The notes under the pieces are model-generated. The model did no database searches, was not told the origin of the DNA, and was given only the letters and a program-made list of their open reading frames with translations. A program made the position numbers and the translations under genes. Of a stretch of DNA of 16,367 nt, positions 436 to 12,593 are shown piece after piece. Source of the stretch: Candidatus Thorarchaeota archaeon. Its GTDB lineage: Archaea > Asgardarchaeota > Thorarchaeia > Thorarchaeales > Thorarchaeaceae. Every line of letters starts with the position of its first letter. Position 1 is the first letter of the stretch. The DNA lies in contig JBHLRS010000047.1 of NCBI GenBank assembly GCA_048882325.1, positions 4,001 to 20,367 of the forward strand. The letters run 5' to 3'.

Positions 436-1928
436 GAAACAATCTCCTCATCATGAAGATGTTTTTCTATCTCATGAATCCTAGTAGTGATTCTCTTTTT
501 CAGAGTCGTAACACCTGGAGAGTCGCTGATATTCAATGCCTCCCGAAGGACTGCCTGAGCATCCTTGAGTTGACCATGCAGTTCATAGAACTTTGACTTG
601 AGAAGAGCTGCTTGCATCCTTATTCCTGGCAAGTCATTTTCTAAGGTATAGTCCTCAAGTCTACAGAGCCACATACCCGGAGTGGGAATTTTCGTTCTGT
701 CTTCGGATTTACAAGACAGCATGATCTCAGCAAGTGCTAAATCAAGCAGAGCTCGGTTTTGATTCGTACCAGCCGGATTGCGTTCTGCGATTTCCCATGC
801 CTTCTCGAACAAATCAATCGCCTCTAAGAGATTGCCTCTTCTTAGCTCAACTACTCCTGTGAAGTGATAGTAGTTACCCAAGGCTCGTTCTACACCTGAT
901 TTGATTATCATTGAATATGCGATTTCCAAGGTTCGTTCTGCTTCCTCAAAATTATCAACCAGAGCCAATGCCCAGGCTTTCCAAAGATAGAAGACTGGTG
1001 TTTCAACAGTTTCATAGAAATCAAAGTACGCATTGATAGATGCAATAGCTTTCTCCCCATCACCCATTGTAGCATAGATTCTACCGGGAAAGATATCTGG
1101 TGTATCCTCAAGTCCATAGACCTTCATCTTCTCGACGTGACTCGATAGTGCTAGGTCATATTCACCAGCTGTTTCGAAAACCAAGGCTGAATCGTGCAGG
1201 GTTTCACCCAGGAAATATGGCACCTCTAGGTCTTGGGCCAGTTGGTAAAGTTCCTCGAAGAGTGCAATCGATTCTTGAACTCCGCTATTCCTCAAGAAAG
1301 TCGCATGTTCTAGGATATTCATGTAAATGAAAGGAGCGTCATCATATGTTTCTGCAATCTCTCTACCTCTCTCAACCAAATCAATAGACTCCTCTCGACA
1401 TGCCTCTCTTGCCTTCACCATTGCTTCAAAGGCATAGACTAGGGGACTAAAGCAGTTCAAGTGGGGGTTTGAATCAATCAAAGTCTTTGCCTTCTCAACT
1501 GGTTCAAGAAGATCTGGAATGACACCCCCAGGCCAATGATAGAACGCATGAAGAAGGTGTAGCTCTGTCTCCATCCAATCCTCAATAGAAGACTGCAGAG
1601 TCTTGTCAATCCCCTCAACAACTTCGTCATGATACAGTATTTGATCCCGCTGGTAGGAATTATGGGCATATCCCCAGGGCCTTATGCATGGGACATCCTT
1701 GTACCTCTCCTGAATCATGCCCTTCTTGTCTTCTAATCGGCACCACCACGAATGGACTGCCGCAAGATAAGATAGATTGACTGGAACTTCGTTTTCGAGA
1801 ACAACATCGCACAATCGATTCACGAAATCATAGTAACTACTTGACTCTTCCATGAGGGAGTCTAGTATTGACTTTGCTTCCTCATCGATGAATTGGTAGT
1901 ATTTTGTAATGGTCCCAAGTGGTTCCAC
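432..1928 (-). CDS. Tetratricopeptide-repeat (TPR)-like protein, ~498 aa
   Basis: TPR-like helical segments (GEYDLALSSH, GRIYATMGDGEKAI, GVVELRRGNLLEAIDLFEKAWEIA, GQLKDAQAVLREALNI). Start moved from TTG 1958 to GTG 1928, based on alignment to the paralog (MEPLGTITKYY) and an upstream GGAGGGAG SD. Confidence 0.85.
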   Translation of the reverse strand: MEPLGTITKYYQFIDEEAKSILDSLMEESSSYYDFVNRLCDVVLENEVPVNLSYLAAVHSWWCRLEDKKGMIQERYKDVPCIRPWGYAHNSYQRDQILYHDEVVEGIDKTLQSSIEDWMETELHLLHAFYHWPGGVIPDLLEPVEKAKTLIDSNPHLNCFSPLVYAFEAMVKAREACREESIDLVERGREIAETYDDAPFIYMNILEHATFLRNSGVQESIALFEELYQLAQDLEVPYFLGETLHDSALVFETAGEYDLALSSHVEKMKVYGLEDTPDIFPGRIYATMGDGEKAIASINAYFDFYETVETPVFYLWKAWALALVDNFEEAERTLEIAYSMIIKSGVERALGNYYHFTGVVELRRGNLLEAIDLFEKAWEIAERNPAGTNQNRALLDLALAEIMLSCKSEDRTKIPTPGMWLCRLEDYTLENDLPGIRMQAALLKSKFYELHGQLKDAQAVLREALNISDSPGVTTLKKRITTRIHEIEKHLHDEEIVS

Positions 1929-9906: not shown

Positions 9907-10371
9907 TTAACCTGCGAGTTCTTCTGCAAACCGCACTCCAAAATCTCGAGCCTTCGCGGGTTCCGATGCACCGAGTGGTCCCTTCAGTCCCTCTACAAGC
10001 GCAGCGAGTCCAGGCTTGAACAGTCTGGCCTCTGGTTCTTTGTCTGCAACCGCATCTTCAACAAACTTCACTGCACGACCTGCATGTCCTGGAGCCTGAT
10101 AGGTTTCAAAAGCGCCAACTAACTTGCCCTTCAAGCCTTGTTTGAGGACATTCTTCACCGCACCTCTGAGTCCGCCAGCAGGTCTAAACATGTGGATTGG
10201 TCCGCCGAGAAGAACACCGTCAAAAGACCCAATATCATGTGAGTTGACCTCATTGATGCCTATGACTGTGCATTCTGCCTTCCCGGTCTCAGTGATTGCA
10301 GCAGCGATCTCTCTGGCCAGTTTCTCTGTGTTTCCATAGGTTGAGTCGAAAATGACTAGGACTTTCTTCAT
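9907..10371 (-). CDS. Flavodoxin-like protein
   Basis: FMN phosphate loop FDSTYGNTEKLA, plus FDGVLLGGP, GAFET and GPL motifs. Confidence 0.9.
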   Translation of the reverse strand: MKKVLVIFDSTYGNTEKLAREIAAAITETGKAECTVIGINEVNSHDIGSFDGVLLGGPIHMFRPAGGLRGAVKNVLKQGLKGKLVGAFETYQAPGHAGRAVKFVEDAVADKEPEARLFKPGLAALVEGLKGPLGASEPAKARDFGVRFAEELAG

Positions 10372-10440
10372 GTTCTATGCACCACATGCTCTGATTGAAC
10401 TTTTTCGGAATTGCATCAAGACCTAGTAAACCTTGGCAAA

Positions 10441-10472
10441 GGAGAATAAAGTGGGGAGGTGGGGACCTCCCC
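10441..10472 (-). terminator. GC-rich hairpin followed by a pyrimidine-rich tract; putative 3' end of the small-ORF transcript
   Basis: On the minus strand, GGGGAGGT-CCCC-ACCTCCCC forms an 8-bp stem (10453-10472) followed by ACTTTATTCTCC. Confidence 0.5.
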
Positions 10473-10511
10473 GGGGAATGAACGAAAATCTAGGATTTCA
10501 GAAACTAGAAG

Positions 10512-10568
10512 CTATTTCTTTGGTTTCTGAGCGGTCTTCTGTTCTTTCTTCTGCTTGTTCTTACCCAT
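10512..10568 (-). CDS. Small Lys-rich peptide MGKNKQKKEQKTAQKPKK (18 aa)
   Basis: Below the ORF-track cutoff. ATG...TAG with a perfect GAGGTGA SD 5 nt upstream (10574-10580), a TATA candidate upstream and a hairpin downstream. Confidence 0.6.
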   Translation of the reverse strand: MGKNKQKKEQKTAQKPKK

Positions 10569-10661
10569 TAATGTCACCTCACTTGACATTCGGGGTCAAT
10601 TTGCCTTGGACACCGTTGCATCCGAAAGGGACTGAGACGAGAAGTCTGTACAAAAAACCCG
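10569..10661 (-). ncRNA. Putative structured 5' leader (cis-regulatory RNA) of the small ORF
   Basis: Nested stems: CGGGUU/GACCCCG closing helix, AGAC/GUCU, CCUU-GGAUGC-AACG-GUGUCC-AAGG (G-U pairs favour the minus strand), and AAUGUCA/UGACAUU enclosing the SD. Confidence 0.45.
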
Positions 10662-10684
10662 TAGCCTTATTTGCGTTTTAATTT

Positions 10685-10692
10685 GATATAAA
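10685..10692 (-). promoter_or_regulatory. Putative TATA box for the small-ORF transcript
   Basis: TTTATATC about 24 nt upstream of the first leader stem, inside a GATAT-AAAC-ATATC inverted repeat. Confidence 0.45.
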
Positions 10693-10896
10693 CATATCTA
10701 ACTAAATTTAAGGCACTCATAAGCCTTTATTTTGTACTTTACGGTCTGATAATTCTTTCATTTTATGAGGGTTTCATTATTGGATTAGGCACAGTGTCTG
10801 CTTCTCACTCTTTACAATATGCGCGATATCTTTCTGACAGAGAATTTCTTTCTCCTCTTACGCTTAAAGCAAGATTTATTTACTTAGGTCAACTTT

Positions 10897-10914
10897 ATTT
10901 TACTTGAGTAAAAT
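10897..10914. promoter_or_regulatory. Palindromic operator, probably for the adjacent TetR
   Basis: ATTTTACT-TG-AGTAAAAT has perfect 8-bp arms. It lies just upstream of the TetR gene and downstream of TATA-like TTTATTTA (10875-10882). Confidence 0.7.
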
Positions 10915-10924
10915 CATCAGTGTG

Positions 10925-11614
10925 ATGACCATGAGTAAGAAGAACGCCGCGTCACCAAAAGCACAGAGGCTCGAACGTCTGAGAAAGCAGCGACGAAAAG
11001 CCATTATCGCAATCGCTAGAGAGTTCTTCGCAACCCAGGGTTATGATCAGGCAATGGTCGAAGACATCGCAGAAGCTGCAGGTTATACCAAGATGACCAT
11101 CTACAACTACTTTGAGTCCAAGGATGACCTCTTCCTGGCAGTGATTTCGGAGGCATACCAGAAGTTGTTCGATATAATGGACAGTCATCTCAAGAGAGAT
11201 GATGTGAGCTTCGAACTTAGGTCCATGGGAGATGCGTATCTTCTATTCTTTGAGAAATATCCAGAGGATGCGATTCTCTTTGAGTCAGGGCGTCTAGGCA
11301 TTGTGATCTCCAATTTGCTGAGGAAAGTAGAAACCGGGGAACAGATGACTGAGAGCGAGCAAGAGTTCAGGCACTACATGATACAGATTGAGGAACTCAT
11401 GACCTCCGTCATAACAGAAACCATGAAGAAGTCAGGAGTCCAGAGCAAGGTGGACCCTTTCTCTGTGATCATGGTCCTCAGTACATTCGCACAGACAATC
11501 CGAGAACTGGTCATACGTGGTAAAAGGAATGAACAGCCAGAAGTGAAGACCCGAGAGTATCTCTCCATCTTCTTCACAATCGTTGACCAGGGTCTGAAGC
11601 ACTATGTAGATTGA
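10925..11614 (+). CDS. TetR/AcrR family transcriptional regulator
   Basis: IIAIAREFFATQGYDQAMVEDIAEAAGYTKMTIYNYFESKDDLF is a TetR HTH. ATG 10925 or 10931 is preferred, because TTG 10904 lies inside the operator. Confidence 0.95.
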   Translation: MTMSKKNAASPKAQRLERLRKQRRKAIIAIAREFFATQGYDQAMVEDIAEAAGYTKMTIYNYFESKDDLFLAVISEAYQKLFDIMDSHLKRDDVSFELRSMGDAYLLFFEKYPEDAILFESGRLGIVISNLLRKVETGEQMTESEQEFRHYMIQIEELMTSVITETMKKSGVQSKVDPFSVIMVLSTFAQTIRELVIRGKRNEQPEVKTREYLSIFFTIVDQGLKHYVD

Positions 11615-12113: not shown

Positions 12114-12593
12114 ATGAAGAGTGCGTTAGTCCTTTATCATTCGGTCTTTGGAAACACCAAGAGTGTCGCCCAAAAACTCTCTCAAGGTTTGGAGGCGGCT
12201 GGTCTCGAGGTGAAGTGTCTAAGCATTGAAGATGTCGACATGTCCGTGATTCCCAACTATGATTTCATCGCTATTGGAAGTCCAACACATATGATTCGAC
12301 CCTCAAAGAAGATGAAAGGGTTTCTAATTAGGCTAGGTAAACTAAACCTCTCCGGACTTGCAGGGTTCAGTTTTGACACTAGGAACGAATCACGGATGAA
12401 TCGTCGCGGCCTATTAGTTCTAGAGAACAGTGCTGCCAGGACCATTGAGAAGGCGTTGAAACGTATGAAAGTCAAGATTGTCAGGTCCCGTTCATCCGCT
12501 ATCGTGATTGGAAGGGAAGGACCACTTGAGTCAGGAGTCGAAGCATCTTTCTTCCAGCTTGGAAGAGAGATAGGTAGTACAATTGCGGCGTGA
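12114..12593 (+). CDS. Flavodoxin-like protein
   Basis: YHSVFGNTKSVA, YDFIAIGSPTH, SFDTR and EGPL motifs. Confidence 0.9.
   Translation: MKSALVLYHSVFGNTKSVAQKLSQGLEAAGLEVKCLSIEDVDMSVIPNYDFIAIGSPTHMIRPSKKMKGFLIRLGKLNLSGLAGFSFDTRNESRMNRRGLLVLENSAARTIEKALKRMKVKIVRSRSSAIVIGREGPLESGVEASFFQLGREIGSTIAA

Follow-up and report, generated by a model that had tools for sequence, protein, structure and literature searches.

The ribosomal protein eL41 (PF05162), found in archaea and eukaryotes, is specified by a stand-alone gene and consists of ~21-25 very basic residues, Arg-rich and with a K-W motif. Lys-rich segments also occur as histone tails, among them the C-terminal tail of histone H1 with its S/T-P-K-K minor-groove motifs. 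In bacteria, some small open reading frames (ORFs) reside in compactly folded mRNAs, such as those of the type I toxins hok and tisB and the dual-function small RNA (sRNA) SgrS/SgrT. In the archaeon Methanosarcina mazei, the 23-aa protein sP26 is encoded by spRNA26, a leaderless ~70-nt RNA with its own promoter (TATA box and B recognition element, BRE), and binds glutamine synthetase (bioRxiv 10.1101/2020.05.06.080432). Here we analyze a 16,367-nt stretch of DNA from a Candidatus Thorarchaeota archaeon (the window), which is part of a 3.6-Mb Thorarchaeota metagenome-assembled genome (MAG). An intergenic region of the window, on contig C47, carries on its minus strand a short unit, hereafter the micro-gene, that encodes an 18-residue Lys-rich peptide and recurs across a family of Thorarchaeota.

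A sequence-only reading of this region had listed a TATA-like box, a folded leader, a Shine-Dalgarno (SD) sequence, an ORF, and a GC hairpin followed by a pyrimidine tract, and each of these parts is present on the minus strand where it had been placed. The putative archaeal promoter block TAGATATG-TTTATATC (10685-10700) combines a BRE-like element with the TATA-like TTTATATC at 10692-10685. If the spacing typical of archaea separates the TATA box from the transcription start site (TSS), transcription would begin at ~10662-10660 and yield a transcript of ~225 nt. The 5′ leader running from this predicted TSS comprises ~95 nt (10569-10662) and contains the SD sequence GAGGTGA (10580-10574), separated by the 5-nt spacer CATTA from the ATG at 10568-10566. 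This spacing is the one that the genome prefers, GAGG peaking at -11 to -13 across 2120 long ORFs. The micro-ORF itself (10512-10568) has 18 codons and a TAG at 10514-10512, and is followed by the terminator-like hairpin GGGGAGGT-cccc-ACCTCCCC (10472-10453) and the pyrimidine/T tract ACTTTATTCTCCTTT (10452-10438). Its product, MGKNKQKKEQKTAQKPKK, contains 8 Lys and 3 Gln in 18 aa, has a calculated charge of +6.5 at pH 7, and is the most basic peptide among the 634 SD-preceded short ORFs of the window genome. It has neither Trp nor Arg, and its hydrophobic residues are limited to Met1 and one Ala.

Several features of the alignments point to translation of this ORF. Its variable columns number 6, 4 and 14 at codon positions 1, 2 and 3, the polymorphic columns with A and G only number 2, 0 and 9, and codon differences comprise 139 synonymous and 89 non-synonymous changes. 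The sole indel inside the ORF is 3 nt long (one codon); the flanking indels measure 1, 2, 5, 7 and 9 nt. Every member retains the ORF, with GTG in place of ATG in G016 and exchange of TAA and TAG at a fixed stop position. An in-frame ATG further upstream, inside a hairpin that holds the SD sequence, is frameshifted in G022 and L050, where 1 nt is deleted. The codons of the terminal P-K-K-stop vary at third positions only (20 members), and a peptide alignment of 16 diverse members has M1, K3, and the C-terminal P and K invariant. Because the termini persist, changes concentrate at third positions and the indel spans a whole codon, these patterns argue that the micro-ORF is under coding selection and is a real protein-coding gene. 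The stand-alone gene for a basic micropeptide that the sequence-only reading had proposed is thus borne out by codon-position statistics, the whole-codon indel, the kept start and stop, and peptide termini shared family-wide; relatives keep the SD sequence, ORF and frame, with substitutions mostly at third codon positions. Two other ORFs were set aside: a plus-strand ORF of 82 aa (10433-10681) has no Pfam match and is not conserved (its longest open stretch is 39-87 aa in relatives), and a leader ORF (10579-10653) contains a stop codon in most relatives. No conserved antisense ORF overlies the unit in the genus relatives.

We compared the intergenic region with 40 relatives by BLAST. Seven other species of the genus share a block of ~310 nt at 76-81% identity, and its flanks fall to 45-61%; this difference, together with the SD at genome-preferred spacing, agrees with the earlier view that the parts co-occur beyond chance. 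Within the genus, the promoter reaches a mean pairwise identity of 0.91, the leader 0.84, the ORF 0.83, the 3′ untranslated region (3′ UTR) 0.61, and the flanks 0.45-0.61. The promoter block, leader, SD sequence, ORF, stop and hairpin are all kept in the genus alignments, with 15 of 22 columns of the promoter block (11 members) and 53 of 93 leader columns invariant. A covariance model of the unit (R1) finds exactly one copy each in 8 of the 28 genus genomes, and a genus-only peptide profile matches only genus members among 301 Asgard genomes. When two large public collections were scanned for the exact motif, the true members all came from Thorarchaeota-type MAGs or from four metagenome contigs; the named genomes that carry this element are Candidatus Thorarchaeota MAGs. 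In the aEF-2 tree, all six carriers in which this marker is present fall within one 100/100 clade of ten genomes, a distribution compatible with one origin in the genus, followed by losses or obscured by assembly gaps. As a separate observation, two genes of this type are present in most genus genomes: aEF-2 itself (~740 aa) and an additional aEF-2-like paralog (~710 aa), which aligns with no more of the model than its first ~480 positions.

Across the rest of the family, R1 gave weaker full-length matches in genera g28, g25 and g15, and genera g26, g27, g23 and g24 were added by R2, a model of sequence alone derived from 16 members. In total, the micro-gene is found in ~25 of 86 family genomes and 8 of 16 genera, some of the MAGs being incomplete. 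Family peptides are 17-26 aa long and follow the pattern M-[AGS]-K-[DN]-K ... K-P-K-K-stop, which the window peptide fits. They include MSKDKKKQQPKPKPKPKK in g28, MAKDKNQKPKAKPKPKK in g25 (with the variant MAKKKPATKKKAKEKPAPKKKK in three further g25 genomes), (V)KNNKQKKQAKPKPKPKINS in g15, MAKDKKPAKTQKK(K)NEKKPKK in g26, MSKDKKPQPPKKEESKTKPKTSTPR in g27, MAKDKKGKKDKKPKPKK in g23, and MAKDKKGKKTTDEKKKKPKK with variants in g24, where two copies stand in tandem ~500 nt apart. Each of these tandem copies (L151 in G222, L152 in G245, L154 in G153) has its own SD sequence and hairpin, and G222 has a third copy on another contig.

The architecture of the unit is shared along with the peptide termini. 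In every member (23 listed), GAGGTGA precedes the start codon by 4-10 nt (by 5 nt in the window), nearly all have a GC hairpin within ~60 nt past the stop, and members have their own TATA-like box upstream. The distance from TATA box to ATG is 117 nt in the window and 109-130 nt across all member genera. The arms of the terminator hairpin differ fully between members yet stay complementary (GGAGGAG/CTCCTCC, CAGGAGGATTT/AAATCCTCCTG, GAGGGGGG/CCCCCCTC, GGCCAG/CTGGCC and GAGAGAGAG/CTCTCTCTT). Together, these comparisons indicate that the micro-gene has been conserved in at least eight Thorarchaeota genera and that its family long predates the genus. Outside the family of the window, R2 gave weak matches only. 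Two genomes of another Asgard family hold look-alike units, which encode (V)AEEKKKEQIPKKPQETRKPKK and MAKKKKAAAKKKTEAKPKKK; homology of these look-alikes cannot be proven, as the sequences are short and of low complexity. We rejected a first match in G225, those in G115/G092, and weak matches in G005, G042, G043 and G020, which consist of the hairpin alone or of tails or N-termini of larger ORFs. The G225 site (L131:3036-3093) is a GGGGAGG-N6-CCTCCCC hairpin with a T tract that follows an unrelated gene and is near-identical to the micro-gene terminator; hairpins of this type may be widespread as terminators in these genomes.

We consider it likely that the unit as a whole is an autonomous cassette for a tiny polycationic peptide of a Thorarchaeota family, with probable charge-based binding to a polyanion. 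Since Lys accounts for 8 of its 18 residues and a hydrophobic core is missing, the peptide is probably disordered and, as a polycation, would act through its charge, most plausibly on a nucleic acid (RNA or DNA) or the ribosome. In the mechanism that we propose, the TATA/BRE promoter, with an inverted repeat just 5′ of it, would start the ~225-nt transcript; ribosomes would make the 18-residue peptide from the consensus SD at genome-preferred spacing that follows the ~95-nt leader; and the GC hairpin and T-rich tract would end the transcript. The free polycation could then bind RNA, ribosome or DNA, like an unattached histone-tail or SPKK-like segment. Searches for relatives of known function gave no match in Pfam for the 20-26-aa members, even at E up to 10, none with a PDB sequence profile, and no paralog or parent gene by tblastn in the window genome, where only unrelated KP-rich tails were found.

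Several points weigh against this interpretation. A broad peptide profile is too weak and fails to recover known members, and for such a short, low-complexity peptide, homology between genera consists of architecture and a few invariant residues. The binding role is pure inference, and the neighbourhood is uninformative. Furthermore, because its distribution is patchy (~25/86 family genomes), the micro-gene appears dispensable and is unlikely to be a core component. Finally, leader identity matches that of the ORF within the genus (0.84 and 0.83), which a view centred on the peptide leaves unexplained.

This last point bears on the alternative that the transcript is a dual-function RNA, that is, a peptide mRNA whose leader is also a riboswitch-like or protein-binding sensor or a base-pairing regulator; we regard it as possible but unlikely. 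Beyond the invariant leader columns noted above, it would account for the long leader found in all genera (~95 nt, as deduced from the TATA-to-ATG spacing) and for the leader motifs GGCGAGG (near the 5′ end), TGTACAG and CCAAGGCA, which recur in several genera. The transcript region is also compactly folded, as the sequence-only reading had anticipated: its 253 nt have a predicted energy of -66.6 kcal/mol (z = -2.5), and 2 of 200 shuffles are equally stable. Four features recur in the genus consensus fold and in the separate minimum free energy folds of 11 of 11 members, namely a helix between a 5′ tract and the ORF, an SD hairpin, a helix around the stop codon, and the terminator. In the consensus, 95.3% of cells are paired, compared with 43-53% in slid controls.

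The first of these features involves the 5′ pyrimidine tract UUUUUUGU (10650-10657), which is predicted to pair with ORF bases 10554-10547 (GCAGAAGA); these fall in codons 5-8 here and correspond to codons 6-9 of the 19-aa relatives. The helix has 10 pairs, one of them changed on both sides (UA to CG), and duplex z values of -1.1 to -2.4 in the seven genus members tested; as a family-wide feature it fails in g23, g24 and one g27 member. The SD hairpin AAUGUCA-AGUGAGG-UGACAUU (10570-10590) presents GAGG in its loop, with the AUG 1 nt past the stem. The genus retains all 7 of its pairs, and 97% of cells are paired; elsewhere, g15 has the compensatory GUGUC/GACAC, and the hairpin is absent in genera with GAGGTGAAA. 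A helix joining the 3′ end of the ORF to the 3′ UTR (10498-10530) would pair UCAGA (10530-10526) with UCUGA (10502-10498) and AGAA (10519-10516) with UUCU (10510-10507), leaving the stop codon in a 5-nt loop. Its paired third-codon positions (columns 211, 214 and 223) are invariant, whereas 11 of 12 unpaired third positions vary. Counted over synonymous sites, 4 of 7 positions with predicted pairing are invariant and 3 variable, compared with 1 invariant and 11 variable among 12 unpaired ones (Fisher p = 0.038), so that synonymous sites in predicted pairs appear frozen or restricted to compatible changes. A central leader hairpin, GAC/UCGUC/GUC ... GAU/AACGG/GUC (10609-10646), is predicted as well, with one compensatory change from CG to UA; in other genera, the corresponding position holds a hairpin whose sequence is unrelated.

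Against a second function of the RNA, covariation is no better than in shuffled alignments, 155 of 500 of which reach the score, and helices are lost across genera. A covariance-model search gave no match in Rfam 15 at the gathering score, and a permissive search gave hits at chance level only (E > 2); ARAGORN found no tRNA or tmRNA in the stretch. Complementarity of the leader to antisense targets in the genome extends to at most 14 nt, which is chance level. The ribosome-binding site (RBS) is not unusually occluded and would be only slightly harder to reach than that of ordinary genes: its opening energy (-14 to +6) is 8.1-12.7 kcal/mol, compared with a genome mean of 8.2 ± 2.9, and lies at the 51st-93rd percentile of SD-bearing genes. 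Strong sequestration of the SD sequence therefore receives no support from these energies, and an anti-SD in the terminator hairpin was ruled out, the hairpin sequences being wholly different in other genera. Just 3′ of the inferred TSS, TCTGTACAGA is a DNA palindrome that may be an operator, and because it is palindromic, part of the leader conservation could reflect a DNA-level operator. What stands of the dual-function RNA that the sequence-only reading had entertained is a leader as conserved as the ORF in the genus, with some motifs across genera; no target, ligand or covariation was found for it. The fold is plausibly a genus-level rather than a family-wide property, and a gating switch finds no support; this genus-specific compactness probably serves mRNA stability or mild translational tuning and not on/off gating.

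Less probable still is a pairing of the Lys-rich peptide with ultra-acidic Asp/Glu/Trp micro-proteins, in which an acidic partner would buffer, chaperone or antagonise the polycation. The window genome does have two acidic micro-ORFs. One lies in an apparent bicistronic unit on contig C18 (L181:470-730, minus strand), where GAGGTGA-cataa-ATG precedes the 25-aa ultra-acidic MHFDDEDTWDADDDDDWEDDDDDDW; 68 nt after it on the same strand follows the 21-aa Lys-rich MSKKKPAKKAKPATASKKKKK, and the two share a hairpin, CGGGAGAAGT/ACTTCCCCG (one mismatch), with a T tract. The other, MHFEDDDLWEEEDWEDDEWDEDDDDW, is at L181:4373-4453 (minus strand), ~3.7 kb from the first. However, these acidic genes are on C18 and the micro-gene is on C47, and MSKKKPAKKAKPATASKKKKK is a different variant that the nucleotide model R2 does not detect. 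A profile of the two acidic ORFs matches 15 of 28 genus genomes and none in other family genera at E ≤ 0.01. Within the genus it shows no co-distribution with the micro-gene, matching 5 of 8 carriers and 10 of 20 non-carriers. It is likewise a speculative and rather improbable extension that Thorarchaeota, and possibly other Asgard archaea, possess a regulated polycation in the form of free polylysine micro-proteins that resemble histone tails or bind ribosomes, maybe paired with acidic Trp micro-proteins to tune chromatin, ribosomes or RNA condensates. If true, a eukaryote-like principle would be executed by stand-alone peptides of ~20 residues.

We give very little credence to the idea that the unit is a non-coding small RNA with a purine-rich stretch that merely resembles an ORF. 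The ORF region is T-poor, a composition that leaves all three frames open, and the transcript is predicted to be compactly folded; but codon-position bias, the whole-codon indel, and a start, stop and SD at optimal spacing in every member all count against this idea, as do peptide termini that are kept across genera while nucleotides and helices diverge.

The weakest alternative is a leader-peptide attenuator that governs read-through into the flavodoxin-like gene downstream (9907-10371, minus strand), which the sequence-only reading had offered and which we discard as next to impossible: although the unit lies ~70 nt 5′ of this gene (flavodoxin-1) on the same strand in 8 of 12 genus-level loci, with the hairpin and T tract between them, it is tail to tail with flavodoxin-2 in G013, G003 and L040/L054, with no gene downstream, and convergent with unrelated genes in g25 and g15, with no flavodoxin within 3 kb. 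In genomes that lack the unit, flavodoxin-1 has its own TATA box ~50 nt before the ATG, and the window keeps the homologous AAGGTTTACTAGG 3′ of the hairpin. Neither the consensus nor the 11 individual folds predict an alternative antiterminator overlapping the ORF; they contain one stable, non-competing terminator hairpin. In other genera, neither flavodoxin nor TetR genes are near the unit, its neighbours including FtsZ, UPF0047, and MarR-type and AsnC-type regulators, and the genes 5′ of it are likewise variable. Given these varied arrangements, unrelated neighbours and a flavodoxin-1 promoter of its own, the cassette appears to be autonomous, independent of its neighbours.

The promoter region has a further conserved part. 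Upstream of the TATA box, the inverted repeat and A/T box AAGGC-TTATGAGT-GCCTT-AAATTT (10704-10727, minus strand) may be a regulator site or an insulating hairpin; a terminator scan flags it as a 5-bp hairpin. The corresponding pattern (A)AGSn-CTAT-N4-5-nSCTT-(T)AAAWTTT recurs 5′ of the TATA box in g1, g25, g28, g15, g26 and g27 members. The promoter motif is found once only in the window genome, and a search for a regulon with the same motif gave genome matches at control level and no regulon.

On the other side of the micro-gene is a divergent TetR-family gene (10904-11614, plus strand). Five relatives share 77-87% identity over the 59 nt (10845-10903) that precede its listed TTG start (10904), also where an insertion of 0.75-2 kb separates the TetR gene from the micro-gene; this segment is likely the promoter or operator of the TetR gene itself. 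A TetR-p156-flavodoxin-2 block shifts as a cassette relative to p183/p205 between species. The two Flavodoxin_5-type proteins of the window (12114-12593 and 9907-10371) are neutral to basic, with pI 7.9 and 10.1, unlike classical acidic flavodoxins; these values rule out charge pairing of the peptide with an acidic flavodoxin.

The micro-gene is ordinary in kind, with a promoter, leader, SD sequence, ORF and terminator; its micro-protein family is absent from Rfam, Pfam and the PDB sequences, in agreement with the earlier impression that it belongs to no described family. A peptide of at least eight Asgard genera would have gone unnoticed because genes so short escape standard annotation. As a complete and well-delimited cassette, it offers a practical test case for the discovery of small proteins in uncultured lineages near the eukaryotic ancestor. 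If the peptide binds ribosomes, RNA or chromatin, it would represent a new type of small basic cofactor in archaeal cell biology; if it is merely a dispensable polycation, it would show that such genes can last long under selection.

Among the known systems, eL41 likewise has a stand-alone gene for a tiny, highly basic peptide. Unlike eL41, the micro-gene family is rich in Lys, Gln and Pro, lacks Trp and has hardly any Arg, and its patchy distribution (~25/86) is unlike that of a core ribosomal protein. A six-frame scan with PF05162 found matches in 0 of 151 Asgard genomes, overlooking even an eL41-like ORF, MRRKWLKKRRRRMKRKQRRRK. We came upon this ORF as a weak match of the nucleotide model in G076, a genome of another Asgard family (L172, ~1301-1816, minus strand). 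Histone tails resemble the peptide in being Lys/Pro-rich and predicted to be disordered, in C-terminal K-P-K-K and in similar charge density, a likeness of composition only; the micro-gene peptide, unlike them, is free-standing and not the tail of a folded protein. With hok/tisB and SgrS/SgrT the unit shares a short ORF in a structured RNA, a 5′ region predicted to pair with the ORF, and a narrow distribution. In contrast to hok/tisB, its peptide is hydrophilic and no membrane toxin, its RBS is predicted to be accessible, and its fold is limited to the genus.

The nearest described precedent, by analogy, is sP26/spRNA26. The micro-gene has a ~95-nt leader, a strong SD sequence and a 3′ hairpin, whereas sP26 is described as leaderless. 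Like sP26, however, it specifies an archaeal micro-protein of ~20 residues from an intergenic region, has its own promoter, is conserved at the lineage level in both nucleotides and amino acids, and had been missed by annotation.

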